This document shows, piece after piece, positions 2-61,484 of a stretch of DNA of 64,000 bases. How positions within the stretch are numbered: position 1 is the stretch's first letter; each line of letters starts with the position of its first letter. The DNA is from Solirubrobacterales bacterium (GTDB lineage Bacteria > Actinomycetota > Thermoleophilia > Solirubrobacterales > JBBDJG01). The notes beneath the pieces are model-generated. The model saw only the letters and a list, made by a program, of their open reading frames with translations. It had not been told where the DNA came from and made no database searches. The stretch lies in the NCBI GenBank assembly GCA_038203635.1, contig JBBRDT010000004.1, positions 4,154 through 68,153 of the forward strand. The letters are read 5' to 3'. The translations under genes and the position numbers were made by a program.

Positions 2-2548
2 GCCGCGGTCGCCGAGGACTTCGCCGACATGGCTGCTCATGGGGTGAACTCGGTCCGGACTTACACAGTTCCTCCCCGCTGGCTGCTGGACCTCGCATAC
101 GAGCACGGCCTCTGGGTGATGGTCGGAGTCCCGTGGGAACAGCACATCGCGTTCCTCAACGACCGCGGCCGCGCGGGAACGATCGTGCAGAACGTGCGGG
201 AGTCGATCCGCTCCTGCGCCGGGCATCCCGCGGTCCTCTGCTACGCGATCGGGAACGAGATCCCCGCGTCGATCGTGCGCTGGCACGGCCGGAGGCGGAT
301 CGAGCGCTTCCTGCGCCGGCTCTACGACGCAGCCAAGCAGGAGGATCCGGAGGCGCTCGTCACCTACGTCAACTACCCCAGCACCGAGTACCTCCAGCTG
401 CGGTTCATCGACCTCGTCTGCTTCAACGTGTTCCTCGAGTCGGGTCCCCAGTTCGAGTCGTATCTCGCCCGCCTCCAGAACATCGCCGGCGACCGGCCCC
501 TGCTGGTCACCGAGGCCGGCCTCGATTCCCTGCGCAATTCCGAGGGTGCACAGGCGCAGGCGCTCGACTGGCAGGTCCGCACGGCCTTTGCGGGCGGGTG
601 CGCGGGGATGTTCGTGTTCTCGTGGACCGATGAGTGGCATCGCGGCGGCTTCGACATCGAGGACTGGGCCTTCGGCCTGGTTGATCGCGACCGCGAGCCG
701 AAGCAGGCGCTCGCCACGGTCGGCAAGGCATTCTCGGAGACGCCGTTCAGGGCGGACCCCGCCTGGCCCAGGATCTCGGTCGTCGTTTGCGCGTACAACA
801 GCGAGGGCACGCTGCGCAGCTGTTTCGACGGCCTGCATGCGCTGCACTACCCCGACTACGAGGTGGTCGTGGTCAACGACGGGTCGACCGACCACACCGA
901 CGCCATCACCGAGGAGTACGGGTTCCGCCTGATCAGCACCGAGAACCAGGGTCTCGCCAACGCCCGCAACGAGGGGTTGCACGCAGCCACCGGAGAGATC
1001 GTCGCGTATATCGATGCCGACGCGCGTCCCGATCCGCACTGGCTCGCCCACCTGGCGACCGGATTCCTGAAGAGCTCCCACGCCGGCATCGGCGGCCCCA
1101 ACATCCCGCCCGCCGGCGACGGCGAGGTTGCGGAGTGCGTGGCGAACGCGCCGGGCGGGCCGATTCACGTGTTGCTCTCGGACGAGATCGCCGAACACAT
1201 CCCCGGCTGCAACATGGCGTTCTGGAAGTCGAGCCTGCTCGCGATCGGCGGATTCGACCCGCAGTACTGCGTCGCGGGCGACGACGTCGACATCTGCTGG
1301 CGCCTGCAGCAGCAGGGTTGGACGGTCGGCTTCAGCCCCGGCGCCGTGGTCTGGCACCACCGCAGGGACTCGATGACCGGATACCTCAAGCAGCAGTACG
1401 AGTACGGCAAGGCGGAGGCGCTCCTGGAGCGCAAGTGGCCCGAGCGCTACAACCGCGCCGGTCACCTCGCCTGGGCGGGCCGGGTCTACGGCGCGCCCCC
1501 CTCGAGGCTGCTCAGCGGCCGCTGGAAGATCTACTACGGCACCTGGGGCACCGGTCTGTTCCAGTCCGTCTACCAGGCGGCGCCCGGGATCCTCGGCTCG
1601 CTCCCGTTGATGCCCGAGTGGTACCTCGTGATCGCGGGCCTGGCGGGCCTCTCGGCACTGGGCGTGCTGTGGTCCCCGTTCCTCTTCACCCTGCCGCTCT
1701 TGCTTGCCGCGATCTCCGCACTCGTCTTCAAGGCGGCCGTGGGTGGAATGCACGGGACCACCTGTGCGGCCGGGTCATGGCTCGGCCGGTTCCGGATGCG
1801 TATGCGCACCGGCCTGCTCTACCTGCTTCAGCCGGCCGCTCGCCTCGGCGGCAGGTTGCGTCACGGCCTTTCCCCATGGCGCCGGCGATCGGCGCCGCAC
1901 CTGGGACTGCCGGTGCCTCGCACACACAGCATCTGGAGCGAGCAGTGGCGCGCACCCGACGAGCGTGTCAGGCGCCTCGAGAAGGCGCTGCGCCGCATCG
2001 GCGGGGTGGTCTTCTCCGGGGGCGACTACGAGCGATGGGACCTCTACGTGCGGGGCGGCATGCTCGGCTCGATGAGACTGCGCGTGGCAGTCGAGGAGCA
2101 CGGCGCCGGACGCCAGCTCGTCCGGATCCGCTCGTGGCCCCGGTTCTCGCGGATCGGCGCGGGCGTGGCGCTCGGCTTCTCCGCGCTCACCGCGGGAGCC
2201 GCGCTCGACAGCGCCTGGGCCGCGGCGGTCGTCCTCGCGGGCACGGCGCTGCTGATCCTCGTATCCACGATCAAGGACTGTGCAACTGCCGCCGGTGTGC
2301 TGCGCATCGCGCTCACCGAGGAAACCGAGCATGCCGCGCGTGAGCTTGCTCCGCGTACGGAGGAGCCCACGGCCCGGCCCGAACCGCGCCTCGCCGGCGG
2401 CACCTTCTCCCCGGCGGTCGAGGTCCCACACCACAACGGCGTGCCGGTGAACGGCATCCCGGGCGTTTCCCGAGGTAACGGCGCCACGCTGCCCTCATCG
2501 TTGAACCTCGCGGACAGAGGCTTCAACGTGACGGAGCCAGAGGAGTGA
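2..2548 (+). CDS. Clan GH-A (GH2/GH5-like TIM barrel) glycoside hydrolase fused to GT2 glycosyltransferase with C-terminal TM helices; 5'-truncated by window edge
   Basis: Frame open from position 2 (AAVAEDFADMAAHGVNSVRTY). YAIGNEIP (acid/base) and LLVTEAG (nucleophile) motifs; GT2 motifs VVVCAYN, DGSTD, YIDAD, GDDVD, QQYEYG; hydrophobic C-terminal segments. Confidence 0.85.
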   Translation, partial: AAVAEDFADMAAHGVNSVRTYTVPPRWLLDLAYEHGLWVMVGVPWEQHIAFLNDRGRAGTIVQNVRESIRSCAGHPAVLCYAIGNEIPASIVRWHGRRRIERFLRRLYDAAKQEDPEALVTYVNYPSTEYLQLRFIDLVCFNVFLESGPQFESYLARLQNIAGDRPLLVTEAGLDSLRNSEGAQAQALDWQVRTAFAGGCAGMFVFSWTDEWHRGGFDIEDWAFGLVDRDREPKQALATVGKAFSETPFRADPAWPRISVVVCAYNSEGTLRSCFDGLHALHYPDYEVVVVNDGSTDHTDAITEEYGFRLISTENQGLANARNEGLHAATGEIVAYIDADARPDPHWLAHLATGFLKSSHAGIGGPNIPPAGDGEVAECVANAPGGPIHVLLSDEIAEHIPGCNMAFWKSSLLAIGGFDPQYCVAGDDVDICWRLQQQGWTVGFSPGAVVWHHRRDSMTGYLKQQYEYGKAEALLERKWPERYNRAGHLAWAGRVYGAPPSRLLSGRWKIYYGTWGTGLFQSVYQAAPGILGSLPLMPEWYLVIAGLAGLSALGVLWSPFLFTLPLLLAAISALVFKAAVGGMHGTTCAAGSWLGRFRMRMRTGLLYLLQPAARLGGRLRHGLSPWRRRSAPHLGLPVPRTHSIWSEQWRAPDERVRRLEKALRRIGGVVFSGGDYERWDLYVRGGMLGSMRLRVAVEEHGAGRQLVRIRSWPRFSRIGAGVALGFSALTAGAALDSAWAAAVVLAGTALLILVSTIKDCATAAGVLRIALTEETEHAARELAPRTEEPTARPEPRLAGGTFSPAVEVPHHNGVPVNGIPGVSRGNGATLPSSLNLADRGFNVTEPEE

Positions 2549-2558
2549 GTCTGCGGTA

Positions 2559-4835
2559 GTGAAAGTCCCGTTTCGCCGACGAAGCAGCGAGACCGAAGTC
2601 GGGGCGTGGGACCAGTGGAAGATCCTTCCGGAGGCGCTTCCCTATCTGCGTCCCTACCGGAAGGTCGTCATCATCTCGTTTGCCCTGACGATCGCCGCCG
2701 CGGCGGTTGGCCTTGCCGAGCCATGGCCGCTGGCGCTGATCATCGACGACGTGATCGGGGCAAACTCCCCGCCCGGCCCTCTGCGGCCGCTGTTCGGCGA
2801 CAACCCGGATCCCTACCGGCTGCTCTTCTTCATCGTCGGGTTCGGCTTCCTGATCTCCACGATGAGTCACGGCGTACGCGTGATCGGCGACTACGTGAAC
2901 GCCAAGATCGAGCAGAACATCGTCCTCGACCTGCGCAGCGATCTGTTCAACCACGTCACCCAGCTCTCGCTGACCTACCACGACGAGCGCCACACCGGAA
3001 TGCTGATGGGCCTCATCAACATGCAGGCCGCGTCCCTGGGTGCGATCGTGATGGCGTTCCCACCTCTCTTCGAGAGCGTGCTGATGTTGATCGGGATGCT
3101 CACGATCGCATTGCTGATCGACTGGCAGGTGACCCTGGTATCGCTCGTCTGCGTCCCCTTCGTCTACTGGGCGATCGGGCTGTACGGGACACGCATCGTC
3201 CCCCGCATCCAGCGCGTGCAGAGCCTGGAGATGCGATCGCTCTCGATCATCTTCGAGGCCATGTCGATGCTGCGGGTGATCACCTCGTTCGGCCGCCGCC
3301 GGCTGGAGCACTACCGCTTCTACACGCAGGGCAAGACCGCGGTCGACGCCCGGGTGCGGCTGACGGTCCATCAGACGATGTTCTCGCTGGGTGTTGCCAC
3401 CGCGATCGCGCTCGGCACGGCGATCGTGCTCGGGTTCGGCGCCTACCACGTGCTGCAGGGCAAGATCTCGCTCGGCGAGATGATCGTCCTGATCTCGTAC
3501 ATCTCCGCCGTCTACCAGCCGCTCGAAGCCATCAGCCACACGGTCGGGAGCCTGCATCAGAGCTTCGTCTTCCTGAACGCCTCGTTCACGATCCTGTCCG
3601 AGAAGCCCGAGGTCACCGAGAAGCCGGACGCGATCGACATCGGTCGGTCGAGCGGCGCCGTGACGTTCGAGAACGTGAGCTTCTCCTACAAGGGCCGTCA
3701 GGGAACGCTCAGGAATGTCTCGTTCAGCTGCAAGGGCGGCGACCGCGTGGCCGTGGTGGGACCGACGGGCGCCGGCAAGACGACGCTCATGAACATCCTC
3801 GTCCGCTTCTACGACCCTGCCGAAGGCAGCGTCAAGATCGACGGTCACGACACCAAGGACCTGACGCTGGACTGCCTGCGCGACCAGATGAGCCTGGTGA
3901 TGCAGACTCCGCTCCTGTTCTCGGGCTCGATCGCCGACAACATCCGGTATGGCAAGCTCGACGCGACGATGGACGAGATCGTGGCCGCTGCGAGGGAAGC
4001 CAACTGCCACGACTTCATCACGAGCCTGCCCGGTGGCTACGAGACCGAATTGGGCGAGGGGGGCGCGCAGCTGTCGGGCGGCGAACGTCAGCGGATCGCG
4101 GTGGCCCGCGCATTCATCCGGGCGGCACCGATCCTCATCCTGGACGAGCCGACGTCGGCGATCGACTCCAAGACGGAGGCCGTGATCCTCGACGCGCTCG
4201 AGAACCTGATGGAGGGGCGCACCTCGTTCATGATCGCCCACCGGCTGTCCACGGTGCGCAACGCCAACCTGATCCTCGTGATGAACCACGGCGAGGTGGT
4301 GGAGAAGGGGACCCACGACGAGCTGCTCGCCACGGGCGGTCTCTACTACCAGCTCTACGAGGCCCAGACCGGCCGCACGGCCGCGATCGAGGCCCAGTAT
4401 GCGCAGCAGGCGCTGGCGGACGGGGACTCGAAGCTGGGCGTCTCGGACATCCTCGCCGAGGTCGCGACCGCCGAGGCGCTGGCCCGCTACGAGCAGACGA
4501 ATCCCCGCCCCGAGGAACCGCACGAGCCGGCCGTGGCCGCCGAGCACCATGGAAACGGCCCCGAGCCGGGATCCACGCCGGCGTTGCAGGCGCCGGTGGT
4601 CCCGCAGCCGTCTGCGGCTGTGCCTGCCGCCGCACAGGAGCCGGACGGTCAGGCGGAGGTCAGCGACCGTGTGATCGAGACACTTACGGACGCCGTCCGT
4701 CAACGCATCCAGCAGGCGCTGTCGAGCAGCACGTCCGATGGAGAGGGAAGCAACGGGGCGCGAGATCAGGACGGACCCGGATCGGATCACCCGGGCTCCT
4801 CGCCGTTTTCGGCGGGAAATGACGCCGGCGTCTAA
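2559..4835 (+). CDS. ABC transporter, fused permease/ATPase (MsbA/type IV exporter-like) with acidic low-complexity tail
   Basis: N-terminal TM helices, Walker A GPTGAGKT, signature LSGGERQR, Walker B ILDEPTS, IAHRLST. Confidence 0.93.
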   Translation: MKVPFRRRSSETEVGAWDQWKILPEALPYLRPYRKVVIISFALTIAAAAVGLAEPWPLALIIDDVIGANSPPGPLRPLFGDNPDPYRLLFFIVGFGFLISTMSHGVRVIGDYVNAKIEQNIVLDLRSDLFNHVTQLSLTYHDERHTGMLMGLINMQAASLGAIVMAFPPLFESVLMLIGMLTIALLIDWQVTLVSLVCVPFVYWAIGLYGTRIVPRIQRVQSLEMRSLSIIFEAMSMLRVITSFGRRRLEHYRFYTQGKTAVDARVRLTVHQTMFSLGVATAIALGTAIVLGFGAYHVLQGKISLGEMIVLISYISAVYQPLEAISHTVGSLHQSFVFLNASFTILSEKPEVTEKPDAIDIGRSSGAVTFENVSFSYKGRQGTLRNVSFSCKGGDRVAVVGPTGAGKTTLMNILVRFYDPAEGSVKIDGHDTKDLTLDCLRDQMSLVMQTPLLFSGSIADNIRYGKLDATMDEIVAAAREANCHDFITSLPGGYETELGEGGAQLSGGERQRIAVARAFIRAAPILILDEPTSAIDSKTEAVILDALENLMEGRTSFMIAHRLSTVRNANLILVMNHGEVVEKGTHDELLATGGLYYQLYEAQTGRTAAIEAQYAQQALADGDSKLGVSDILAEVATAEALARYEQTNPRPEEPHEPAVAAEHHGNGPEPGSTPALQAPVVPQPSAAVPAAAQEPDGQAEVSDRVIETLTDAVRQRIQQALSSSTSDGEGSNGARDQDGPGSDHPGSSPFSAGNDAGV

Positions 4836-7293
4836 AAAGGTCGTCCTGCTCGGCATGATGACGAGGATCCCGGTTGCCGGGGTCGTCTGGCAGACCGCGC
4901 ACTACCTGCTGGGCCTCGAGCGTCTCGGCTACGAGGCCTATTACGTCGAGACGCACGCGCGCACGCCGGCGATGCTGATGGAGCGCGAGGAGGACGACAG
5001 CTCCGCCCGCGCGGCGGCTTTCGTCGACGGGGTCATGCGGCGGTTCGGCCTCCGCGATCGCTGGGCCTTCTACGCGCTGCACGACGACAACCGCTGCTTC
5101 GGGATGAGCCGCACGCAGCTGCGACGCCTGTACGGAGATGCGCTCTGCCTGATCAACCTGCACGGGGGCACCGAGCCGCGTCCGGAGCTGTACGAGACCG
5201 ACAGGCTGGTCTACCTCGAGACCGACCCGGTGCAGCTGCAGACAGAGCTCCACTACGGAGTCCAGGCATCGTTCGACTTTCTCGACCCGCACTGCGCGTT
5301 CTTCACCTACGCAGAGAACCACGGCAATCCGGACTGCGGGCTTCCGAGTCACGACAGGTTTCCGTTCCATCCCACGCGCCAGCCGGTGGTCATGGACCTC
5401 TGGCGCGGGCGGGGAACCCCGGGTGAGCAGATGACCACGGTGGGCAACTGGCGCCAGCCGTGGCGTGAGATCGAGCTGGACGGCGAACGCTACAGCTGGA
5501 GCAAGCACCACGAGTTCCTGAAGTTCATCGACCTCCCATCGCGCACCGTACAGCCCTTCGAGCTTGCGCTCTCCAGCTACGAGCCCGAGGACAAGCAGAT
5601 GCTCGAGGGAAAGGGCTGGCGGGTGCGGCACGCGCTCGACTTCTCCACGGACACCGACGCCTACCGCGACTACGTCACGAACTCGCGGGGGGAGTTCACC
5701 GTCGCCAAGGACCAGAACGTGCGCCTGCGGACCGGCTGGTTCAGCGACCGCAGCATCACCTATCTGGCGGCCGGGCGGCCCGTGATCAGCCAGGACACCG
5801 GCTTCTCCAACATCTTTCCCACCGGAGAGGGCCTGTTCGGATTCTCCTCCATGGACGAGATCCTGGCTGCCGTCGAGGCGATCAACTCCGACTACGCGCG
5901 CCACAGCCGCGCGGCCGAGGAGATCGCGCGCGAGTACTTCGCCCACGACGTCGTGCTGGGGCGCTTGCTGAGCGACGTCGGCGCGGACCTCTGCGGCGGG
6001 AACGGCTACGCCGTCAAACGCCATGGCACCGCCCCGTTCCCCCCGGGGCTCGACCTGGAGCCCGCCTCGCGGCGGCCCACCCGGCTCGCACCCGAGACCG
6101 AGGCTCACCTGGCGGCGCGCCCGGTGCCGGCGCGCACGACCCACCCCTGGCCCGGCTGCACTCCCGTGAGCATCGTCATGACCTCACACGACAACCTGCT
6201 CTTCACCCGCATGTGCATCGAGAGCGTGTTGGCGTGCACCGAGTACCCGAGCTACGAGTTGATCGTCGTCGACAACGGCTCTGACGACGGCACGGCCGAC
6301 TACCTCCGGGAGCTGGCGGCGCGAAACTCGCATGTGAGGTTGGCGCTGAACAGCCGCAACGCAGGGTTCGCGCGGGCCTGTAACCAGGGCGCGGCGCTCG
6401 CGGCCGGCGATGTGCTCGTGCTCCTCAACGACGACACGCTCGTCACACCCGGGTGGCTGCCGCGTCTGATCGCCCCACTGAACGATCCGCAGATCGGCCT
6501 CTGCGGCGCGGTCACCAATCGCATCGGCAACGAGGCCGAGATCCCGACGTCGTATCGCACCTGGGGCGAGCTGCTCGAGTTCGCCGGCGAGCGTGCGCGC
6601 ACGCAGGCGGGCATCCTCACCGACATCGGCACGGTCACCATGTTCTGCATGGGCCTCCGCGCGGCATCGTTCGAGCGGATCGGCCCACTGGACCAGCGCT
6701 TCGAGATCGGCATGCTCGAGGACGACGACTACTCGAAGCGCGCGCGCGAGGCCGGGTACCGCCTCGTATGCGTCGAGGACGCGTTCGTCCACCACTTCGG
6801 GGAGACGTCATTCGGCAAGCTCGTGCCGACCGGTCGCTACGGCGAGATCCTGGAGGAGAACAAGCGCCGCTTCGAGGAGAAGTGGGGAGAGCCGTGGCAG
6901 CCATACCAGCGCCGCCCCGATCCCGAATACACGGGCCTGCGCGACCGCATCCGTGAGATCGTCGCCGCTGCCATCCCGGCCGAAGCGACGGTGCTGGTCG
7001 TGAGCAAGGGCGACGTGGAGCTGCTCGAGCTCGGCGGCCGGCGCACGCGTCACTTTCCCGAGGCCGAGGACGGCACCTGGGCCGGCCATCACCCGGCCGA
7101 CAGCTCCGAGGCGGTGGCGACCCTCGAGGCGATGCGCGCGACCGGGGGCGAGTTCATCGTCTTCCCGCGGACCGGCATGTGGTGGCTCCAGCACTACCAA
7201 GGGCTGCTGGAACATCTCGAGCGCCGCTACGACACGGTCGTCCGCGAGGACGACGTGTGCGTCATCTTCGCCCTCAACGGACGCGACCCGTGA
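4819..7293 (+). CDS. Multidomain glycosyltransferase: unusual GT-B-like domain + GT2 + C-terminal 'VSKGD' domain
   Basis: ATG 4819 overlaps the ABC gene end. N-half aligns with paralogues at 17333, 21202, 22356 (GWFSDRS..YLA.G.P); GT2 motifs VDNGSDD, LLNDDT, EDDDY. Confidence 0.85.
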   Translation: MTPASKKVVLLGMMTRIPVAGVVWQTAHYLLGLERLGYEAYYVETHARTPAMLMEREEDDSSARAAAFVDGVMRRFGLRDRWAFYALHDDNRCFGMSRTQLRRLYGDALCLINLHGGTEPRPELYETDRLVYLETDPVQLQTELHYGVQASFDFLDPHCAFFTYAENHGNPDCGLPSHDRFPFHPTRQPVVMDLWRGRGTPGEQMTTVGNWRQPWREIELDGERYSWSKHHEFLKFIDLPSRTVQPFELALSSYEPEDKQMLEGKGWRVRHALDFSTDTDAYRDYVTNSRGEFTVAKDQNVRLRTGWFSDRSITYLAAGRPVISQDTGFSNIFPTGEGLFGFSSMDEILAAVEAINSDYARHSRAAEEIAREYFAHDVVLGRLLSDVGADLCGGNGYAVKRHGTAPFPPGLDLEPASRRPTRLAPETEAHLAARPVPARTTHPWPGCTPVSIVMTSHDNLLFTRMCIESVLACTEYPSYELIVVDNGSDDGTADYLRELAARNSHVRLALNSRNAGFARACNQGAALAAGDVLVLLNDDTLVTPGWLPRLIAPLNDPQIGLCGAVTNRIGNEAEIPTSYRTWGELLEFAGERARTQAGILTDIGTVTMFCMGLRAASFERIGPLDQRFEIGMLEDDDYSKRAREAGYRLVCVEDAFVHHFGETSFGKLVPTGRYGEILEENKRRFEEKWGEPWQPYQRRPDPEYTGLRDRIREIVAAAIPAEATVLVVSKGDVELLELGGRRTRHFPEAEDGTWAGHHPADSSEAVATLEAMRATGGEFIVFPRTGMWWLQHYQGLLEHLERRYDTVVREDDVCVIFALNGRDP

Positions 7294-9580: not shown

Positions 9581-9584
9581 GCAC

Positions 9585-15344: not shown

Positions 15345-15357
15345 TGGCCCACTGCTC

Positions 15358-17318: not shown

Positions 17319-17332
17319 GCGACAGGCCTGAC

Positions 17333-18490: not shown

Positions 18491-18496
18491 GCCGCC

Positions 18497-19078: not shown

Positions 19079-20031
19079 CCCGGGTCCTGTTCTACCGGGA
19101 CTTCAAGCGTTTCACGGGCGGCGACCTCAAGGTCTGGGACTACTTCAACCACGTGCGCTCGGAGCCGCGCCATTCCGCGCACGTGCGCTTCAGCGCGGAG
19201 TCCGTGTGGGGTGCGGTCAACCCATGGGCTGCGGCCAAGGAATGCGTGCTCGCTCCCGGCGAGGACGTCGACATCGACGTCGTCTTCCTGTCCGGCACGG
19301 ATTGGCGGCGCGTGATCCCCGAGGACCAGCGACCGCGCTACTCCAAGCCGGTCGTCAACCTCATCCAGCACGTACGGCACGGCTGTGAGAACGACCCGCT
19401 CGGGCGGCAAATGCTCCTGCGCTACAGCGCGATCCGCATCTGCGTGAGCCCGGAGGTCGAGCAGGCAATCCTGGCGACCGGCCGGGTGCGTGGGCCGGTG
19501 TTCACGATTCCCGACGCGATCGACGTGGCGCACGTCGAACGTCTCGCCGGCTCCGGGACCCGTGACGTGGACGTGCTGGTGGCGGCGAACAAGCAGCCCG
19601 AGCTCGGCCGATCGCTCGTGCGCAGGCTCCAGGCCGCCGGCCGCGACGTGCATCTGGTTGACAGCCGCATCCCGCGCGACCGGCTGGTCGCCCTGATGGG
19701 CCGCGCGCGCGTCACCGTGATGGTCCCGAACCCGAAGGAGGGCTTCTACCTGCCCGCCATCGAGGGCATGGCGGCAGGCACGGTGGTCGTGTGTCCGGAC
19801 TGCGTCGGCAACCGCTCCTACTGCATCGACGGCGTGAACTCGTTCCGCCCCGCCTACGACGAAGATGCGATCGTAGACGCGGCCGAGCGCGCACTGGCCA
19901 GCGAGTCGCCGACCGAGGATCTGCTGCGCGCAGCGCGCGATACGGCGCGTGCCCACGACCTCGATGTGGAGCGGCGCGCCTTCCTCGACATCCTCGACCG
20001 CGTCGACGAGCTCTGGGCGGCCGCGGGCTAA
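19075..20031 (+). CDS. GT4-like glycosyltransferase; probable non-canonical ATA start
   Basis: TGGDLKV loop and EGFYLPAIEGMAAG (EX7E). ATA at 19075 overlaps the upstream TAG, with GGAGG 7 nt upstream. Confidence 0.8.
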   Translation: MARVLFYRDFKRFTGGDLKVWDYFNHVRSEPRHSAHVRFSAESVWGAVNPWAAAKECVLAPGEDVDIDVVFLSGTDWRRVIPEDQRPRYSKPVVNLIQHVRHGCENDPLGRQMLLRYSAIRICVSPEVEQAILATGRVRGPVFTIPDAIDVAHVERLAGSGTRDVDVLVAANKQPELGRSLVRRLQAAGRDVHLVDSRIPRDRLVALMGRARVTVMVPNPKEGFYLPAIEGMAAGTVVVCPDCVGNRSYCIDGVNSFRPAYDEDAIVDAAERALASESPTEDLLRAARDTARAHDLDVERRAFLDILDRVDELWAAAG

Positions 20032-20037
20032 CCGCGT

Positions 20038-21114
20038 CTAAACGGGCTTGCGGAACAGCACGGCGTCCTGCTGGATGTCGAGCGCGCCTCCCGGAGAGAA
20101 GTCGAGCAGCTCGAGCCCCTGGCCGAGCACCTCGCGCACGTAGCGCTCGGGGTGATACGTGGCGCATCCGCTGCTGCCCGAGTGCTCGCCGTCGATGACC
20201 ACGAGCTCGCCGGCCTCGAACCCGGGAGCGATCCGCTCGTGCTCCCCGGGGTGCTCGCGCATGTATTCCACCCGGCTGCGCCCGTGAAAGGTGGGTAGCA
20301 GGACCCCTCCGGGCTTGGTCACCCGCGACAGCTCCTCCATCCACCCCAGCTGCAGCTCGGCGTCGAGGTGCGTGAAGATCGACAGGGCATAGACGAAGTC
20401 GAAGAGGTCGTCGTCGAAGGGCAGCGGCGGCTCGAGCTGATTGACGCGAAAGTCGCCGAACGAAAGGTTCTCGGCGCACCACTGCACGAGGTAAGGGTTG
20501 TAGTCCGACCCGTACAGCTTCGCCTCCGTGAGGTCGGGCCAGTGCCGGATCACACGGCCACACCCACACCCGAAATCGAGGAGGGTGCCGAGCGCGGACG
20601 GCTGCACGCCGTTGCGAACGAGCATCTCGGCAATCCACGTCGTCGCGTAGCGTCCGTAGCGGTGGAACTCCTCCGGTTTTATCCAGCCCGCCACCAACGC
20701 GACCATCTCGGGCGGAGGGACCGGCAGCCCGTCCTGCGCGATCGCAGGCTCAGCTCCGTCGAGGTCCAGCGCATAGATGTGGCAGGCGTCTTCGTCTGCC
20801 GGTATGCGCCGCAGCTGCGTGCGCAGGAATCTCCTCAGCTCGGGGTGGCGCTCCATCCACGGATACACCTCCGAGGGGACCGGGACGTACTGCATCCCGT
20901 TCGTCCGGAAACGCTCGATGCGGACACCGACGTGTGCGCTCGTCAACTCCGCCCGCCCGACGTCGAGCACCACCTTGCCCGTGGTCCTGGCGTCGAGGTC
21001 GGGCATCTCGCCCGGCTCGTTGACGAGCACGCCCACCCGCGCCCAGTACGGAAGGGTGAAGCGCACCTCGCGTTCCACCGGCCCGAACCTGTCGATCGAC
21101 CTCTGCGCCCCCAC
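20038..21114 (-). CDS. Class I SAM methyltransferase with degenerate N-terminal 'VSKGD'-type domain
   Basis: LLDFGCGCGRVIRHW, SIFTHL, KPGG; clear paralogue of 24537-25610. Confidence 0.85.
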   Translation of the reverse strand: MGAQRSIDRFGPVEREVRFTLPYWARVGVLVNEPGEMPDLDARTTGKVVLDVGRAELTSAHVGVRIERFRTNGMQYVPVPSEVYPWMERHPELRRFLRTQLRRIPADEDACHIYALDLDGAEPAIAQDGLPVPPPEMVALVAGWIKPEEFHRYGRYATTWIAEMLVRNGVQPSALGTLLDFGCGCGRVIRHWPDLTEAKLYGSDYNPYLVQWCAENLSFGDFRVNQLEPPLPFDDDLFDFVYALSIFTHLDAELQLGWMEELSRVTKPGGVLLPTFHGRSRVEYMREHPGEHERIAPGFEAGELVVIDGEHSGSSGCATYHPERYVREVLGQGLELLDFSPGGALDIQQDAVLFRKPV

Positions 21115-21201
21115 TCTCCCGTACCTTACGCGGCCGCGTCACCGGGCGTGTGGGTGCGATTGCGATAATTGGCAGATGTACCCGCGCGATGCTCTGTCTG
21201 C

Positions 21202-22359
21202 ATGGCCACCGTCCTAGTCGGCGGGGCGGTTGCCAACAAGCTGCACAACGGCGGAGAGGCGTGGGTGCGGCTGAGCTGGATACGAGGCCTGCGGAAACTC
21301 GGTCTCGACGTATGGTTCGTCGAGCAGATCGACGCCGGCACCTGCGTCGACGCCGCCGGCTCGCCGGCGGCGTTCGGCGATTCCGAGAACCGCCGCTACT
21401 TCGAGACCGTGATGGCCGAGTTCGGGCTGACCGATCGCGCGTCCCTGCTGTACGAGGACGGCGCCGAGACGGCGGGACCGTCACTCGACGAGCTTGCCGA
21501 CGTGGCGGCCGAGGCCGACCTGCTCGTCAACATCAGCGGACACCTGCAGGTACCCGACCTGATGCGCCGGGTGCGACGCAGGGCCTACGTGGACCTCGAC
21601 CCCGGGTTCACGCAGTTCTGGCACGCCGACGGCTGGACCGGCCTCGCGGGGCATGACTCGTACTTCACCGTTGGGGAGAACATCGGCAGGCCTGGATGCG
21701 AAATCCCGACCGGCGGCATCGACTGGCTACCCGTGCCGCCCCCGGTGGTGCTGGAGGACTGGCCACTCTGCGATCACGGGCCCTTTGGGTCGTTCACGAC
21801 CGTCGGGGCCTGGCGCGGCGCCTTCGGCGTGATCGAGCGTGAGGGGCGCACCTACGGGCTGAAGGTGCACGAGTTCCGCAAGGTGATCGAGCTTCCGACC
21901 CAGGTCCCCCACCGCTTCGAGATCGCGCTCGACATATACCCGGGCGACGAGCGCGACCGCGAGTCGCTGGAGGCCAATGGCTGGCACCTGCTTCGTCCCG
22001 CCGAGACGGTCCGCGGGCCGCTCGACTTCCGGCGCTTCGTGCAGCGCTCTGGAGCCGAGTTCTCGGTCGCGCAGGGCATCTACGTGGACACGAACAGCGG
22101 CTGGTTCAGCGACCGCAGCGTGCGGTACCTGGCTTCGGGCCGTCCCGCGCTCCTGCAGGACACCGGCTTCAGCCAGAACTACCCGGTCGGCGAGGGTCTG
22201 GTCGCGTTTCGCACGGTCGCGGAGGCGGCCGCGGGAGCACAGCGCATCGCCGCCGACTACGAAGCGCACCGCGGCGCGGCGCGGGCCCTCGCCGAGGAGC
22301 GCTTCGACTCCGACAAGGTGCTGCCCCGTTTCCTGGAGCAGGCAGGCCTGGGCCGGTGA
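21202..22359 (+). CDS. Unusual GT-B-like putative glycosyltransferase (paralogue 3 of 4)
   Basis: GGEAWVRLSW, YVDLDPGF, GWFSDRSVRYLASGRP..QDTGF. Confidence 0.75.
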   Translation: MATVLVGGAVANKLHNGGEAWVRLSWIRGLRKLGLDVWFVEQIDAGTCVDAAGSPAAFGDSENRRYFETVMAEFGLTDRASLLYEDGAETAGPSLDELADVAAEADLLVNISGHLQVPDLMRRVRRRAYVDLDPGFTQFWHADGWTGLAGHDSYFTVGENIGRPGCEIPTGGIDWLPVPPPVVLEDWPLCDHGPFGSFTTVGAWRGAFGVIEREGRTYGLKVHEFRKVIELPTQVPHRFEIALDIYPGDERDRESLEANGWHLLRPAETVRGPLDFRRFVQRSGAEFSVAQGIYVDTNSGWFSDRSVRYLASGRPALLQDTGFSQNYPVGEGLVAFRTVAEAAAGAQRIAADYEAHRGAARALAEERFDSDKVLPRFLEQAGLGR

Positions 22360-23510
22360 CCGGCGGCCGGCTGCGCATCGTGGTGAGCGGCATGATCGCC
22401 GCCGTGCCGCACCATGGCGGCGCCACCTGGGCGGTGCTCCAGTACCTGCTCGGGTTCCGGGACCTCGGGCACGAGGTCGTATTCGTCGAGCAGATCGACC
22501 CCGGGTCGCTGCGCCCCACCGGGTCGTCCCTCGGCGAGTCCGACAACCACGCCTACATGCGTTCCGTCGCCGAGCGCTTCGGGCTCGGCGACAGTTGGGC
22601 GCTGCTCGAAGAGGGCACGTACCGCACCGCCGGCCTGACGTATGACGCGCTGCGAGCGGCCGCCCGCGACGCGGACGTGCTGATCAACATCTCGGGGATC
22701 CTGACCGACGAGAACCTGATGGCCGCCGCGCGCACGAAGGTCTACCTCGACCTCGACCCCGCGTTCAACCAACTCTGGCACGCCCAGGGCATCGACATGC
22801 ACTTCGAGGGGCACGACTGCTTCGTGACGGTCGGCCAGGCGATCGGCACACCGGACTGCACCATCCCCACGTCCGGCATCGACTGGATCCCGACCGTGCC
22901 GCCCGTACAGCTCGAGCACTGGCCCGTCGCCGCGGGCGGCGCCCGGTTCACGACGATCGGCAACTGGCGCGGCTACGGCTCCGTCGAGCACGAGGGCGTC
23001 AAGTACGGCCAGAAGGCCCACTCCATGCGCGACCTGATGGCGCTCGCCGCGCGCACCGACACGCCCTTCCTGCTCGCGCTCGACATCCATCCGGGCGAGA
23101 CGCCGGACCTCGAGGCGCTCGATCGCAACGGTTGGCAGATCGTCGCCCCCGCAACCGTCGCCGCAGACCCCGACTCATACAAGGAATTCATCGCCGGCTC
23201 GCAGGCCGAGCTCGGGATCGCCAAGAGCGGCTACGTCCTTTCCCGGTGCGGGTGGTTCAGCGATCGCAGCGCCTGCTATCTGGCATCCGGAAAGCCGGTG
23301 GTGGCGCAGGACACCGCCTTCGCGCGGTTCCTGCCGACCGGCGCCGGACTGCTGTCCTTCGCATCCGAGGACGATGCGCTCGCCGGCGTCGAGGACGTTC
23401 GCTCCGACTACGCCCGCCACGCCCGGGCCGCGCGAGAGATCGCCGAGGAGCACCTCGACTCGCGCAAGGTTCTGGCGGGCTTGCTCGAGCGCATCGGAGG
23501 CGCGGCTTGA
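22356..23510 (+). CDS. Unusual GT-B-like putative glycosyltransferase (paralogue 4 of 4)
   Basis: GTGA overlap; GGATWAVLQYLLG, YLDLDPAF, GWFSDRSACYLASGKP..QDT. Confidence 0.75.
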   Translation: MTGGRLRIVVSGMIAAVPHHGGATWAVLQYLLGFRDLGHEVVFVEQIDPGSLRPTGSSLGESDNHAYMRSVAERFGLGDSWALLEEGTYRTAGLTYDALRAAARDADVLINISGILTDENLMAAARTKVYLDLDPAFNQLWHAQGIDMHFEGHDCFVTVGQAIGTPDCTIPTSGIDWIPTVPPVQLEHWPVAAGGARFTTIGNWRGYGSVEHEGVKYGQKAHSMRDLMALAARTDTPFLLALDIHPGETPDLEALDRNGWQIVAPATVAADPDSYKEFIAGSQAELGIAKSGYVLSRCGWFSDRSACYLASGKPVVAQDTAFARFLPTGAGLLSFASEDDALAGVEDVRSDYARHARAAREIAEEHLDSRKVLAGLLERIGGAA

Positions 23511-24523
23511 ACGCGGCTCCGGGAAACGACGAGTTGCGCGCACGGCTCGAGGGCGCTCTCGCCGCGCACGAGGGGACGCCCGTCGCGATCAGCGAACTGG
23601 AGCGCCGCCCGTGTGAATACCGCACCAGCTTCGCTCTCGAAGAGCTCGAGGTGTCACTCGCGGACGGCAGGACGCTGAGGTTGATGTTCAAGGACCTCTC
23701 CCGCGCCTGCCTCGACGCGGACGCGCTCCTGGTGAAGCCCGGCTTCCTGCACGACCCGGTGCGCGAGGTCGAGGTCTACCGCGACCTGCTGGACGGTGCT
23801 GCACTCGGGACCCCCGCTTACCACGGCGCCTTCGTGGACCCGGCCACCGACCGTTACTGGCTCTTCATCGAGAACGTCGTGGGTCCCGTTCTGTGGCAGG
23901 TCGGAGAGTTCCACGTCTGGGAGGAGGCGGCCCGGTGGCTCGCGCGACTGCACGCGGCCCTGGCGCCCGCGGCCGCTGCGGCTCCGCGTTCGCTGCTGCG
24001 CTTTGGACCGGACCTCTATCGCACGTGGATCGAGCGGGCGCGCAATTTCGCCGAGCGCCCATCGACGCCGTGGGACGACGACACGCGAGCGGCGGTGATT
24101 CACCTGTCCACACGCTACGAGCCGGTGGTCGAGCGGCTCGACGCGCTGCATCCGACCATCGTGCACGGTGAGTTCTATCCCTCCAACGTGCTCGTTCAGC
24201 ATCCCGAGGGAGCCGTCAGGATCGCCCCGATCGACTGGGAGATCGCGGGCGTCGGCCCGGGCCTTCTGGACCTCGCGGCGCTCACGATCGGCAAGTGGAC
24301 GCCGGCGCAACGCGAGGCATTGGCGCACGCCTACCGCGAAGCTGCGGCGGCCGGGCCCGCGGCCGACATGCTCCCCGCCGACTTCGACGCGGCGCTCGAC
24401 TGCTGCCGCCTGCACCTCGCGGTCCAGGCGCTCGGATGGGAACCCGGATGGCAACCCCCGGCGGAGCATCGCCACGACTGGCTCGCGGAGTCGGTCCGGA
24501 TCGCCGGCGAGTTGCGCCTCTAG
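23507..24523 (+). CDS. APH/choline-kinase-like phosphotransferase
   Basis: TTGA overlap start; Brenner-like HGEFYPSNV and IDWE. Confidence 0.82.
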   Translation: MNAAPGNDELRARLEGALAAHEGTPVAISELERRPCEYRTSFALEELEVSLADGRTLRLMFKDLSRACLDADALLVKPGFLHDPVREVEVYRDLLDGAALGTPAYHGAFVDPATDRYWLFIENVVGPVLWQVGEFHVWEEAARWLARLHAALAPAAAAAPRSLLRFGPDLYRTWIERARNFAERPSTPWDDDTRAAVIHLSTRYEPVVERLDALHPTIVHGEFYPSNVLVQHPEGAVRIAPIDWEIAGVGPGLLDLAALTIGKWTPAQREALAHAYREAAAAGPAADMLPADFDAALDCCRLHLAVQALGWEPGWQPPAEHRHDWLAESVRIAGELRL

Positions 24524-24536
24524 AGTGCAGGACCGG

Positions 24537-25610
24537 ATGCCGGCGAGCCACACCGAGACCAGCCCGCACGTGCTCGATGTGCTGCGATTCGCCGTTCCGT
24601 GGGATGCGGCGGTGGCCGTGATCGGAAGCGAGGTCGATTGGATCGGCCGCCGGCTGGTCGTGCCCTTCTCGCCCGACGGCCGGATCGCCACGGAGCTCTC
24701 CGAGGCAGAAGCGATCGAACGGCTCGAGGCGCTGCGTGCGGAGGGATGCGAATACCTCGTCGTGGGACCCTCGGCGTATGCGTGGCTCGACTCGCGCTCC
24801 GGCTTCAAGCAGCGCCTCGAGACGCAATATCGGCTCGTCGACCACGACCCGCAGGCATGCGCGGCCTACGCGCTGCACGGTGTGGAAGAGCGGGCCGGTG
24901 CGGACGGGCTGCCCCTGCCTCCGCCGGACCTGATCCGGATGACCTCCGGCCTTTACCGGCGCGCTGCCGATCCCGAAGCAATGCGCCGCCGCTACGAGGC
25001 CACCGGCGCCGACAATGCCGTGTGGATCCGCGACATCCTGACACGCAACGGCGTCGCGCTGAACGAGCCCGTTGCGCTGCTCGACTTCGGCTGCGGCTGC
25101 GGACGCGTGATCCGCCATTGGAAGGACCTGCCGGGCAGTGTGCACGGCAGCGACTACAACCCGAACCTCGTGCGCTGGTGTGCCGAGCACCTTCCCTTCG
25201 CAGAGTTCCGCGCGAACGCGGCTGAGCCGCCCTTACCCTACGAGGCCGGCTCGTTCGACATCCTCTATGCGATCTCGATCTTCACCCATCTCGACGAGCC
25301 TCTGCAGATGCCGTGGATCGCAGAGCTGACCCGAGTCGTCCGGCCGGGAGGGTTGATCCTGATCACCGTCTCCGGCGAGGACTACGTGCACAACATGCCC
25401 GGATGGGAGCGCCTGCGCGAAGCCTTCGAGTCCGGGCAACTGGTCGTGAGGAAGCCCGAGCGCACCGGCTCCAATGCGTGCGCCGCGTTCCACCCGCCGG
25501 AATATGTGCGCGACACGCTCACCGCGGGCCTCGAGATCGTCGACCACGAGCCCGGCGTCCGCCAGGCGGGCCGGCAGGACGGGCTGCTGCTGCGCACCCC
25601 GGTGAAGTGA
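24537..25610 (+). CDS. Class I SAM methyltransferase with N-terminal 'VSKGD'-type domain (alternative start GTG 24525)
   Basis: LLDFGCGCGRVIRHW, SIFTHL, RPGG; N-terminal LEALRAEGCEYLVV...CAAYAL. Confidence 0.85.
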   Translation: MPASHTETSPHVLDVLRFAVPWDAAVAVIGSEVDWIGRRLVVPFSPDGRIATELSEAEAIERLEALRAEGCEYLVVGPSAYAWLDSRSGFKQRLETQYRLVDHDPQACAAYALHGVEERAGADGLPLPPPDLIRMTSGLYRRAADPEAMRRRYEATGADNAVWIRDILTRNGVALNEPVALLDFGCGCGRVIRHWKDLPGSVHGSDYNPNLVRWCAEHLPFAEFRANAAEPPLPYEAGSFDILYAISIFTHLDEPLQMPWIAELTRVVRPGGLILITVSGEDYVHNMPGWERLREAFESGQLVVRKPERTGSNACAAFHPPEYVRDTLTAGLEIVDHEPGVRQAGRQDGLLLRTPVK

Positions 25611-26326
25611 TGGCAGAGCGGGTCCTGATCGTGAACGCCGACGACTTCGGGCTCAGCCCCGGTGTCAACGCCGGCGTCGCGCGCGCCCACGAGCAGGGAA
25701 TCCTCACCAGCGCGAGCCTGATGGTGCGGTTCCCGGCCGCCGCCGAGGCGGCCGCGTACGCGCACAGCGCCCCCGGCCTCAGCCTGGGACTGCACGTCGA
25801 CCTGGGCGAGTGGGTCTACAACGACGGCGACTGGGACACGGTATACGAGGTCGTGACGCTCGACGACCCCGACGCGGTCGTCGACGAGGTGGGCAGGCAG
25901 GTCGAGTCGTTCCGAAGGCTGGTTGGGCGCGACCCGAGCCACATCGACTCGCACCAGCACGTGCACAACTGGGACCCGGTCGTGACGTCCTTCAGAACCC
26001 TCGCCCTGGCGCTCGGCGTGCCGCTGCGCCACTACACCGCCGGCGTGTCCTACTGCGGTGACCTGTACGGCCAGTTGAACGACGGGACACCGATCCCCGG
26101 CGCGCTCACTCCGCGCGCTCTGATCGAGATCATCGAGCAGCTGCCGGCCGGGATCACGGAGCTGGCCTGTCACCCCGGGCTCGGCGACGACAGCGGGTCG
26201 GTCTACGAACGCGAGCGCACGCAGGAGGTCGAGGTTCTGTGCGACCCGACCGTGCGCGGGGCGCTCGAGCGCGAGCGCATCGTGCTGCGGTCGTTCGCTC
26301 ACCTTGCGTCCGGGGGCGCGGCCTAA
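25610..26326 (+). CDS. ChbG/YdjC/HpnK family carbohydrate deacetylase
   Basis: TGATG overlap; LIVNADDFG, GLHVDL, HIDSHQHVH, ELACHPG. Confidence 0.92.
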   Translation: MAERVLIVNADDFGLSPGVNAGVARAHEQGILTSASLMVRFPAAAEAAAYAHSAPGLSLGLHVDLGEWVYNDGDWDTVYEVVTLDDPDAVVDEVGRQVESFRRLVGRDPSHIDSHQHVHNWDPVVTSFRTLALALGVPLRHYTAGVSYCGDLYGQLNDGTPIPGALTPRALIEIIEQLPAGITELACHPGLGDDSGSVYERERTQEVEVLCDPTVRGALERERIVLRSFAHLASGGAA

Positions 26327-26346
26327 ACGCTAGGGTTCCCACTCTG

Positions 26347-26886
26347 ATGGAGCACGAAGGATTCACACTGTGGCTCACCGGGCTGCCCCGATCGGGCAAG
26401 AGCACCGTCGCGGGCTTGGTCGCCGGGCGACTGCGTTCGCTCGGCGTCGAGCAGATCGAGGTCCTCGACGGGGACGTCGTGCGCGACGGCCTGTGCCGGG
26501 ACCTGGGCTTCTCCCGCGAGGACCGCACCGAGAACATCCGGCGCATCGCCTTCGTCAGCAAGCTGCTGACGCGCAACGGCGTCGCGGTGATCGTCGCGGC
26601 GATCTCGCCCTACCGTGAGGACCGCGAGCTGGCACGCGAGGAGATCCAGTCCTTCATCGAGGTCTGGTGCCACGCCTCCGCGGACGACTGCGCCGCGCGT
26701 GATTATAAGGGCCTCTACGAGAAGGCCCGGCGCGGCGAGATCACGAACCTCACAGGGGTCAACGACCCCTACGAAGAGCCCGAGGATGCCGACCTCGTGC
26801 TCGACACGGTCGGCGAGGGGCCCGAGGCGAGCGCCGAGCGCGTGATGTCACTGCTGCGCGACCGCGGCGTACTGCCTGCGGCCTAG
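26347..26886 (+). CDS. cysC: Adenylyl-sulfate (APS) kinase
   Basis: WLTGLPRSGKST, LDGD..R, DLGFSREDRTENIRRI, ISPY, KGLY, TGVNDPYEEP. Confidence 0.95.
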   Translation: MEHEGFTLWLTGLPRSGKSTVAGLVAGRLRSLGVEQIEVLDGDVVRDGLCRDLGFSREDRTENIRRIAFVSKLLTRNGVAVIVAAISPYREDRELAREEIQSFIEVWCHASADDCAARDYKGLYEKARRGEITNLTGVNDPYEEPEDADLVLDTVGEGPEASAERVMSLLRDRGVLPAA

Positions 26887-61416: not shown

Positions 61417-61484
61417 CCACTAGTCTGATTGAGCCGATGGGATGTAGTCGTAGGCAGGGATCGGCCACGCTTTTGCATGTCCGA

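Follow-up and report, generated by a model that had tools for sequence, protein, structure and literature searches.

A conserved gene cluster of uncultured Solirubrobacterales proposed to assemble and export a sulfated, polyanionic glycan

A cluster of 21 genes occupies positions 2..26886 of a 64,000-nucleotide (nt) stretch of DNA, referred to here as the window, from an uncultured soil bacterium of the order Solirubrobacterales (Actinomycetota, Thermoleophilia). The window corresponds to C4:4154-68153 (contig JBBRDT010000004.1) of a 3.33-Mb genome in 151 contigs that is 83% complete. Judged from its genes alone, and with about even confidence, the cluster is proposed to assemble in the cytoplasm an N-acetylhexosamine-containing, partly de-N-acetylated glycan that is made polyanionic by sulfation and is then exported by an ATP-binding cassette (ABC) protein. 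The proposal starts from the observed gene content, domain architectures, predicted cytoplasmic location of the enzymes, conservation, and modules that are exchanged between lineages. Glycan-biosynthesis loci are of a known kind; what is unusual here is a core formed by a fused glycoside hydrolase (GH)-GT2 enzyme and an MsbA-type exporter without carrier-pathway genes, unusually heavy tailoring, and an uncultured lineage.

Gene content and organization of the cluster

At a G+C content of 68%, open reading frames (ORFs) are plentiful in the window. Genes were called from third-position G+C and a sliding frame plot and then by Pfam, with NCBIfam used for family models. Twenty of the genes follow one another on the plus strand, and one (20038..21114) lies on the minus strand (Table 1). 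Start and stop codons overlap at nine of the 19 same-strand junctions, by 4 nt at eight of them (starts at 7290, 8762, 10892, 12685, 14031, 22356, 23507 and 25607) and by 1 nt at the ninth (start at 15978). Starts were inferred as the start codon closest to the upstream stop, and orthologue coverage near 1.0 agrees with this choice. The window edge truncates g01, whose true start lies 187 nt upstream at C4:3966, so that the operon begins outside the window. Upstream of g01 are a SnoaL-like gene on the other strand, a gene for a GT92 glycosyltransferase (GT), which is conserved together with the cluster and is an operon member, and a gene for a secreted double beta-helix protein. Scans of the cluster borders for promoters and terminators yielded no signal above that of shuffled sequences.

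An all-against-all protein comparison showed the cluster to be composed of a few duplicated modules, namely four CgeB-like GT-B copies (g03 N-terminus, g12, g16 and g17; 34-48% identity), four GT2 copies, three sulfotransferases, and a pair of methyltransferases. An initial annotation made from the letters of the window had described 21 genes with overlaps of 1-4 nt and about ten GT-type domains, along with three methyltransferases, a kinase, a deacetylase, cysC and an exporter, and had pointed upstream of the window for missing parts. Frame analysis and Pfam return the same gene count, with nine overlapping junctions, and ten GT-type domains in nine proteins (by Pfam and paralogy to g12); the remaining functions correspond to g13/g15/g19, g18, g20, g21 and g02, respectively. 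The upstream region supplied the start of g01 and the GT92 gene, and its three genes include no Wzx or Wzy by Pfam.

Table 1. Genes, domain copies and flanking features (window positions unless a contig is named; aa, amino acids)
Feature	Coordinates	Strand	Description
g01	2..2548	+	911-aa bifunctional membrane enzyme; Glyco_hydro_2_C and Glycos_transf_2/Glyco_trans_2_3 (Pfam)
g02	2559..4835	+	ABC exporter with fused transmembrane and nucleotide-binding domains, MsbA/NdvA/PglK type, 758 aa; PF00664 and PF00005
g03	4819..7293	+	three modules: CgeB-like GT-B, GT2, 115-aa accessory domain
g04	7290..8765	+	GT2 and 115-aa accessory domain
g05	8762..9580	+	two copies of 115-aa accessory domain; 46-52% identity to g03/g04 C-termini
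g06	9585..10895	+	GT4 glycosyltransferase (Pfam)
g07	10892..12688	+	~320-aa N-terminal region without family, then GT2
g08	12685..14034	+	Sulfotransfer_3 with ~135-aa N-terminal accessory domain
g09	14031..15344	+	Sulfotransfer_3, same type as g08; orthologues in genus 73-80% identical
g10	15358..15978	+	206 aa; large uncharacterised family; HxPKTGG (PKTGG-type loop) and RRLPxWxLS motifs
g11	15978..17318	+	Sulfotransfer_3, same type as g08
g12	17333..18490	+	CgeB-like GT-B (Glyco_trans_1_2)
g13	18497..19078	+	short S-adenosylmethionine methyltransferase-like protein, 193 aa; only distal half of Pfam domain matches
g14	19153..20031	+	short GT1/GT4-like glycosyltransferase; start uncertain
g15	20038..21114	-	methyltransferase with N-terminal accessory domain; g19 paralogue; strain-variable
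g16	21169..22359	+	CgeB-like GT-B, 48% identical to g12; weak Pfam match (E 0.007)
g17	22356..23510	+	CgeB-like GT-B paralogue, 46% identical to g12; no Pfam match
g18	23507..24523	+	APH-family phosphotransferase (protein-kinase-like fold); PF01636, 44 bits
g19	24537..25610	+	methyltransferase with N-terminal accessory domain; strain-variable
g20	25607..26326	+	YdjC-family carbohydrate de-N-acetylase; PF04794, 161 bits (cut-off 30)
g21	26347..26886	+	CysC (adenosine 5'-phosphosulfate (APS) kinase); TIGR00455, 204 bits (cut-off 139); Pfam APS kinase, 198 bits
115-aa accessory domain copies	6922-7278, 8403-8750, 8795-9151, 9242-9499, 24549-24881	+	in g03, g04, g05 (twice), g19
115-aa accessory domain copy	20725-21066	-	in g15
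Sulfotransferase N-domain copies	12718-13119, 14031-14435, 15978-16400	+	in g08, g09, g11
d1	26914..30264	-	secreted, 1116 aa, no family; two tandem related modules (27% identity) and basic C-terminal domain
d2	30275..33244	-	989-aa RTX-repeat protein; N-terminal hydrophobic segment and same basic C-terminal domain as d1
Basic C-terminal domain carriers	26914-30264, 30275-33244	-	d1, d2
Basic C-terminal domain carrier	61257-62954	+	
Basic C-terminal domain carriers	G000 contigs C67, C41		
TauE/SafE-family anion permease	59312-60055	-	33 kb from cluster

Among the 21 proteins, g01 and g02 alone are membrane proteins. In g01, a clan GH-A TIM-barrel domain (GH158/GH2-like) is followed by a GT2 domain and ~4 C-terminal transmembrane (TM) helices. 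The closest solved relative of the hydrolase domain is a GH158 enzyme (E 4e-7), and the motifs GNE and VTEAG, which we take to be the two catalytic motifs of clan GH-A, are retained. For the GT2 domain, the closest solved relative is chondroitin synthase (E 5e-16, nucleotide-binding part only), and the top-scoring NCBIfam models are MftF, EpsD and the PgaC/IcaA type, with the PgaC_IcaA model matched at E 1e-27 and 97 bits (cut-off 422). Because g01 has no signal peptide and no hydrophobic segment between its two domains, both are predicted to be cytoplasmic. The exporter g02 scores ~420 bits with each of MsbA, the NdvA-type glucan exporter (424; cut-off 733) and a cyanophycin-associated ABC protein, all below cut-off. 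Its C-terminal tail of ~150 aa is rich in P, A, E and Q; low complexity and the lack of a Pfam match rule out a Wzt-like carbohydrate-binding module there.

The GT-type domains are of family GT2 in g01, g03, g04 and g07, GT4 in g06, a GT1-like type in g14, and the CgeB-like type (Glyco_trans_1_2) in g12, the g03 N-terminus, g16 and g17. The Pfam score of the CgeB-like type is above cut-off in g12 and below it in the g03 N-terminus; g16 and g17 share 44-48% identity with g12. An unannotated accessory domain of 115 aa is common to g03, g04, g05 (twice), g19 and g15, and has 14 matches in the genome, including some on contigs C68, C20, C28 and C7. In g05, neither a Pfam match nor a catalytic domain was found. 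Searches of this domain and of the sulfotransferase N-domain against solved structures returned nothing convincing, the best matches being short segments from designed TIM barrels and a stathmin-like domain. The accessory domains shared by the GTs may keep these enzymes bound to one another or to the acceptor.

Signal peptides and TM segments are predicted for none of g03-g21, and because the tailoring enzymes lack both, assembly and tailoring are predicted to be cytoplasmic. The de-N-acetylase g20 matches the solved chitooligosaccharide deacetylase 7vi8 (E 7e-20) and falls below the equivalog cut-offs of both ChbG (124 vs. 227 bits) and HpnK (115 vs. 233 bits). The short methyltransferase-like g13 is kept at 59-85% identity in all relatives examined. 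Strain differences within the genus concern methyltransferases, with a g19 orthologue in place in three of six genomes and no g15 orthologue in G005. The kinase-like g18 is kept in all same-family relatives examined and in G024, from another family. When g18 was compared with all solved structures at E values up to 1, only ACAD11 was returned, and no WbdD; a WbdD-type chain terminator was rejected at the level of sequence on this basis, the likeness consisting of a kinase gene beside a methyltransferase gene.

The sulfotransferases g08, g09 and g11 score 63-75 bits with Sulfotransfer_3 (Pfam; cut-off 27). In their alignment, the loops TLGRTGST and RDFRDM..S, which bind the 5'-phosphosulfate and 3'-phosphate of 3'-phosphoadenosine-5'-phosphosulfate (PAPS), are invariant or nearly so. 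Among the 17 other genomes of the family, 16 have matches to this 437-aa type, up to 12 each; the present genome has seven, and the type is rare outside the family. Its N-domain of ~135 aa is a separate module with seven matches in the genome and no Pfam or PDB relative found. The N-domain also occurs in an ORF at G000:C20:3211-3576, where no sulfotransferase domain match was found, and is fused to GT2 enzymes in G024 (L046:2440-2880, 5269-5775). Other sulfotransferase copies of this genome are solitary; three neighbours are a polysaccharide lyase, a methyltransferase and another RTX protein. For instance, on G000 contig C52 (L038:9876-14155) a paralogue lies beside a secreted polysaccharide lyase (PF14099) with CBM60 and an NAD-dependent sugar epimerase/dehydratase. 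The lyase might serve in the turnover of this anionic glycan or a related one.

Four sulfotransferases had been counted in the initial annotation. Three of them are those above the Pfam cut-off, while the fourth, presumably g10, is a candidate at the level of motifs only. Neither g10 nor eight orthologues match Pfam, and profile searches with nine and with 69 sequences gave no PDB match. Its alignment to the cluster sulfotransferases (hhalign) covers the P-loop/PAPS loop only and is not significant (E 0.037, probability 1.4%), and an AlphaFold2 model from a nine-sequence alignment was unusable at a pLDDT (predicted local distance difference test) of 53. The g10 family comprises 535 representatives; among 25 scanned proteins, it is fused to Sulfotransfer_3 in three and to methyltransferase domains in four.

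The APS kinase g21 is the only one found in the 83%-complete genome and is the best-conserved gene of the cluster (78-96% identity). ATP sulfurylase and (P)APS reductase are encoded together on another contig. A predicted role as dedicated PAPS supply for the sulfotransferases fits, in line with the earlier suggestion that a cluster-linked cysC reflects a high demand for sulfation. In G024, a homologue of the TauE permease of Table 1 (L045:1766-2689) is located immediately between cysC and the glycan cluster, a position suggesting that the permease serves the sulfate/sulfite traffic of the pathway. Elsewhere, two genes of the PF00884 (sulfatase/LtaS/MdoB) superfamily are located at G000:C114:4327-5490 and C76:8975-9997, in open frames of 619 and 1204 aa.

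Conservation within the family and a core shared across the class

The cluster is colinear in all six same-genus genomes, and the records that hold the orthologues of 73-80% identity are labelled uncultured Solirubrobacterales bacterium. Comparison was extended to seven more regions, of which six are from other genera of this family and one (G024) is from another family. There the cluster recurs in rearranged form, with g12, g13, g16, g17, g18 and g20 found in all seven. The cysC gene is present at ≥78% identity in five of the seven; in G024 a 46% copy lies at the cluster head, and in G017 the contig ends. Four of the seven contain g10. Four also contain g01 and g02, the fetched stretch or contig stopping earlier in G015, G009 and G017; wherever the stretch extends that far, g01 and the ABC exporter head the cluster. 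Additional genes of the G024 version are three for GT2 enzymes and one for a DegT-type sugar aminotransferase; its head consists of a CysN fragment, CysC and the TauE permease. Conserved co-occurrence of these genes in other genomes, to which the initial annotation had looked, is therefore seen within the genus and in other genera.

Full-length g01 orthologues (52-64% identity) are patchily distributed, being present in 10 of the 251 genomes that were sampled from the class. Seven distant loci from other families were picked by their g01 match, so g01 is present in them by design; an ABC exporter match lies directly downstream in five of the seven, and a CgeB-like GT is found in six. The mini-core of these distant lineages is referred to here as the fused GH-GT2 membrane enzyme, usually together with the ABC exporter and CgeB-like GTs. 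No sulfotransferase, cysC or kinase was found in the seven fetched stretches, of which the 11.9-kb contig of G029 ends inside the cluster and is not judgeable. In G270, the mini-core is accompanied by a CE4 polysaccharide deacetylase and a PIG-L de-N-acetylase (L052:3754-4518, 7088-7804), both without signal peptides; a divergent two-component system adjoins these genes. In G066, a polysaccharide pyruvyl transferase (L056:6665-7546) stands where the sulfotransferases sit in the present cluster, and there is no sulfotransferase. YdjC itself occurs also in G024 and G055.

The presence of three unrelated de-N-acetylase families beside the same core argues that the substrate constantly holds an N-acetylated amino sugar. 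That one lineage has sulfate and another pyruvate similarly argues for anionic decoration as part of the product. On these gene patterns, the synthase-exporter core looks like the older part, on which sulfation, methylation and the kinase would have been an elaboration.

Proposed pathway, its alternatives and the flanking genes

What follows on substrates, primer, sequence of steps, product and destination of the product is inferred from these genes. At the inner face of the membrane, g01 would make or prime an N-acetylhexosamine-containing chain, which its hydrolase domain would trim or rearrange by transglycosylation. The soluble GT2, GT4 and CgeB-like GT-B enzymes, several of which bear the 115-aa domain, would add sugars to extend and branch the chain, and YdjC (g20) would strip N-acetyl groups. 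Three, perhaps four, PAPS-dependent sulfotransferases fed by the APS kinase would add sulfate, possibly also onto the freed amines, while methyl groups would be added by the methyltransferases and phosphate by the APH-type kinase. Finally, g02 would move the finished polyanionic glycan to the cell surface or into the medium. Cytoplasmic assembly followed by ABC export had already been put forward in the initial annotation, and both the predicted location of the tailoring enzymes and the presence of a fused ABC exporter are consistent with it.

A more specific version of this pathway is considerably more doubtful. In an abundant family of soil actinobacteria, it would yield a glycosaminoglycan-like surface glycan following the logic of heparan sulfate, in which an amino-sugar chain is made by a hydrolase-synthase, de-N-acetylated in the cytoplasm, N- and O-sulfated, given a strain-variable pattern of sulfation and methylation, and exported by a carrier-free ABC route, with an ancient GH-GT2 and ABC core reused across the class. 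Paralogous sulfotransferases number 7 to 12 per genome.

Several points weigh against the proposed pathway. Processive synthases of the BcsA, PgaC and hyaluronan synthase type combine a GT2 domain bearing Q(Q/R)xRW with a multi-helix translocation channel, and PgaC-type enzymes have QRxRW at the site where g01 has QQYEYG. With QxxRW absent and only ~4 hydrophobic helices, g01 does not have the features of a processive synthase, and it may be neither the processive nor the initiating enzyme. MsbA/PglK-type exporters typically carry lipid-linked substrates. APH-family kinases also act on free sugars; g18, which probably adds phosphate to the glycan, could instead activate a sugar, so phosphate in the product is uncertain. 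The amino-sugar assignment draws on deacetylase families, this cluster having no sugar-nucleotide gene, and no deacetylase was found among the scanned genes of G066 (Pfam). The distant loci owe their g01 to the way they were selected. Two further points, the lipid-carrier genes elsewhere in the genome and the structural relatives of the sulfotransferases, belong to the alternatives discussed next. The motif list of processive GT2 synthases is also given in the available text of PMC10237404.

Wzx, Wzy and a chain-length regulator were looked for by Pfam in the 21 genes, in the three genes upstream, in the remainder of the window and in the scanned genes of G024, G270 and G066, and none was found. 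Neither a phosphoglycosyl transferase (PGT) nor Wzm/Wzt occurs in the cluster or in the Pfam-scanned versions of those three genomes, and no nucleotide-sugar gene was found among the window ORFs scanned. The sole exporter is a single polypeptide (PF00664 and PF00005) and not the two-component Wzm/Wzt (ABC-2) kind. The initial annotation had noted the same absences in the window and had proposed a non-canonical pathway. The absences of PGT, Wzx/Wzy and Wzm/Wzt hold for the cluster versions examined; in the genome as a whole, other contigs encode six Bac_transf proteins, two strong MraY/WecA-family matches and two LCP ligases. Because Bac_transf and MraY/WecA-family genes sit on other contigs, the absence of a PGT from the cluster is only suggestive.

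An ordinary polyprenol-linked route is thus an alternative, unlikely on balance yet the most credible of those considered. In it, a remote PGT would prime undecaprenyl phosphate, soluble GTs would extend the chain, the kinase and methyltransferase would cap it, g02 would flip it, and an LCP ligase would attach it to peptidoglycan as a sulfated secondary cell-wall polymer, with g01 being just another GT. Besides the PGTs, WecA-like gene and LCP ligases elsewhere, the many soluble GTs, including g03 with its two GT modules, are typical of such canonical ABC-dependent pathways, and the exporter scores like MsbA and PglK; the exporter is, however, not of the Wzm/Wzt type of known O-antigen and teichoic-acid pathways, and its C-terminal extension holds no carbohydrate-binding module. 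Pyruvylated wall polymers are known, and the pyruvyl transferase of G066 occupies the place of the sulfotransferases; on the other hand, no version of the cluster examined has a PGT, and g01 and g02 stay paired even in minimal versions. The adjacent g18 and g19 recall the WbdD terminator of Escherichia coli O9a as described in the accessible part of PMC3482155, but no similarity of g18 to WbdD was detectable in the search of solved structures, and g19 is absent from its position in three of six same-genus genomes.

A sulfated glycolipid or small glycosylated natural product, with a membrane lipid, a hopanoid or a small aglycone synthesized elsewhere as its base, is improbable. A glycolipid had been named as an option in the initial annotation. 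YdjC is related to HpnK of hopanoid tailoring, at a score below cut-off, g03 weakly matches HpnI, and an MsbA-type exporter would suit an amphiphile. Yet the cluster and its scanned versions contain no acyltransferase, polyketide, fatty-acid or terpene gene, and at least ten GT domains exceed the needs of known glycolipids.

The closest solved structures to the sulfotransferases are the protein-tyrosine sulfotransferases TPST1 and TPST2 (E 1e-5), which brings in the neighbouring genes d1 and d2. These are convergent with the operon and are treated here as associated genes. Where the contig permits judgement, they adjoin the cluster in 11 of 12 relatives, and one sulfotransferase paralogue elsewhere adjoins another RTX protein. 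It could be envisioned that the cluster glycosylates and/or tyrosine-sulfates secreted d1, d2 or other surface proteins, but this too has little probability: the TPST match spans only ~140 residues around the PAPS site, d1 and d2 are not co-transcribed with the operon and are not beside the cluster in G024 or in any of the seven distant loci, and no GT-C oligosaccharyltransferase or O-GT-like enzyme was found in the cluster (Pfam). A carbohydrate deacetylase and about ten GT domains better suit a free or lipid-linked glycan.

The d1 family comprises 156 proteins labelled hypothetical in metagenomes and genome records (metagenome-assembled genomes). In one metagenomic homologue, P0112 (1749 aa), the first d1 module is fused to RTX and immunoglobulin-like repeats, echoing the d1-d2 pair. 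The basic C-terminal domain, which ends five secreted proteins, is Lys/Arg-rich and ~100 aa long, with a conserved Cys/Gly/Phe pattern and no Pfam family. Within the order, 46 of 61 genomes encode it, most members of this family having 3-8 copies each; basic-domain tallies include the unpublished genomes G008 and G046, and sulfotransferase tallies include the unpublished G008. A role for the domain as anchor to the sulfated glycan was rejected, as its distribution gives no support to a specific link with the sulfotransferases. For example, in family f5 the basic domain is found in seven of ten genomes and a sulfotransferase in none of the ten, and G010 (91% complete) has five domain matches and no sulfotransferase match.

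On the other side of the cluster, the secreted protein encoded at C4:314-2386, preceding the GT92 gene, has two right-handed beta-helix (NosD/Beta_helix) repeats. Matches, some of low coverage, are found in five of six same-genus genomes, and none in the other genera examined. The protein is possibly a glycan-cleaving or glycan-modifying enzyme.

Distribution, significance and comparison with known systems

Near-identical DNA is present in soil, sediment and permafrost metagenomes of 12 studies; four runs were aligned, one of them probably the source sample. No RNA data set is among the metagenome matches listed, the single run guessed to be RNA having been flagged as probably DNA. In the literature, no paper was found that links Solirubrobacterales or Thermoleophilia with a sulfotransferase, nor one that describes this cluster.

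Sulfated glycans are central to animal and algal biology. If the proposed pathway is true, it represents a rare sulfated glycan from a non-photosynthetic bacterium and extends such glycans to a widespread uncultured soil lineage. If the glycosaminoglycan-like version is true, it represents a previously unrecognised type of bacterial glycan pathway with interchangeable deacetylases and anionic groups (sulfate or pyruvate). The core (GH-GT2 enzyme, ABC exporter, CgeB-like GT and deacetylase) is compact and portable, and its heterologous expression could yield new anionic or glycosaminoglycan-like oligosaccharides. The cluster also offers a context in which function can be tested for large uncharacterised families, including those of g10 and d1, the 115-aa accessory domain and the sulfotransferase N-domain.

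The cluster could not be matched to a described product in the initial annotation, and comparison with Wzx/Wzy, Wzm/Wzt, NdvB, Nod-factor, PgaC-type and WbdD systems has likewise given no match. The Nod-factor pathway of rhizobia produces a lipo-chitooligosaccharide by means of NodC, NodB, NodH with NodPQ, NodS and NodIJ. Shared features are a membrane GT2 acting on an N-acetylhexosamine chain, a cytoplasmic de-N-acetylase, pathway-linked PAPS sulfation, methylation, and ABC export without a polyprenol carrier, all of these being predicted in the present case. In contrast, the cluster has no NodA-type acyltransferase, scores far below the cut-offs of NodC (26 vs. 550 bits) and NoeE (25 vs. 500), has YdjC instead of a CE4 deacetylase (no CE4 is in the cluster) and a fused MsbA-type exporter instead of NodIJ, and adds about ten further GT domains as well as a hydrolase domain fused to the synthase.

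In the poly-N-acetylglucosamine (PgaC/PgaB, IcaA/IcaB) and Pel systems, a synthase, a de-N-acetylase and a glycoside hydrolase act on an amino-sugar polymer. The same triad is found here, whereas deacetylation and hydrolysis are predicted to be cytoplasmic instead of extracytoplasmic, and export is by an ABC protein instead of through the synthase.

Among clusters with embedded sulfotransferases, the synechan xss cluster of Synechocystis is said to be of the Wzx/Wzy type. Its product is a sulfated exopolysaccharide, as stated in the available text of PMC8205485. According to the portions of PMC13390465 at hand, reports of sulfated polysaccharides from bacteria have to date been confined to cyanobacteria, with no more than a suspicion in actinomycetes. 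The nearest published actinobacterial case is wps-1 of Actinoplanes missouriensis, whose two sulfotransferases are encoded together with a methyltransferase, a kinase-like protein and a GH26 enzyme; its authors predict Wzx/Wzy dependence and describe sulfation of the product as unverified (PMC13390465). As far as these two texts go, both systems resemble the present cluster in having sulfotransferases within a glycan cluster (PMC8205485, PMC13390465), and wps-1, also from an actinobacterium, further shares their combination with a methyltransferase and a kinase-like protein as well as with a hydrolase of clan GH-A, its GH26 enzyme. The present cluster differs from both: it lacks Wzx, Wzy and Wzz, pairs a GH-GT2 fusion with an MsbA-type exporter, has a dedicated cysC, and comes from a family in which one sulfotransferase type has expanded throughout.

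The E. coli O9a O-antigen pathway with WbdD, as outlined in the part of PMC3482155 available, is alike in its cytoplasmic assembly by soluble multi-domain GTs, a kinase beside a methyltransferase, and ABC export. It is unlike in that the present cluster, in a monoderm host, has no Wzm/Wzt, no carbohydrate-binding module on the exporter and no WbdD similarity in g18, and includes sulfation.

Lastly, NdvB is described in the accessible text of PMC10237404 as a cyclic beta-1,3-glucan synthase comprising a GH17 domain, a TM region and GT2, with NdvA/ChvA-type ABC proteins as the glucan exporters; in pseudomonads, its clan GH-A domain fused to GT2 makes and rearranges the glucan. By that account, a clan GH-A TIM barrel and a GT2 domain are likewise combined in one membrane protein, and the product later gains anionic substituents (PMC10237404). 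The hydrolase domain of g01 is GH158/GH2-like and not GH17, is joined to GT2 without a TM region, and is predicted to be cytoplasmic; moreover, g01 has ~4 helices where NdvB has seven and lacks QxxRW, and g02 reaches 424 bits against the NdvA-type cut-off of 733. By analogy, then, the cluster would resemble the Nod-factor and NdvB/NdvA pathways in logic and not in membership.

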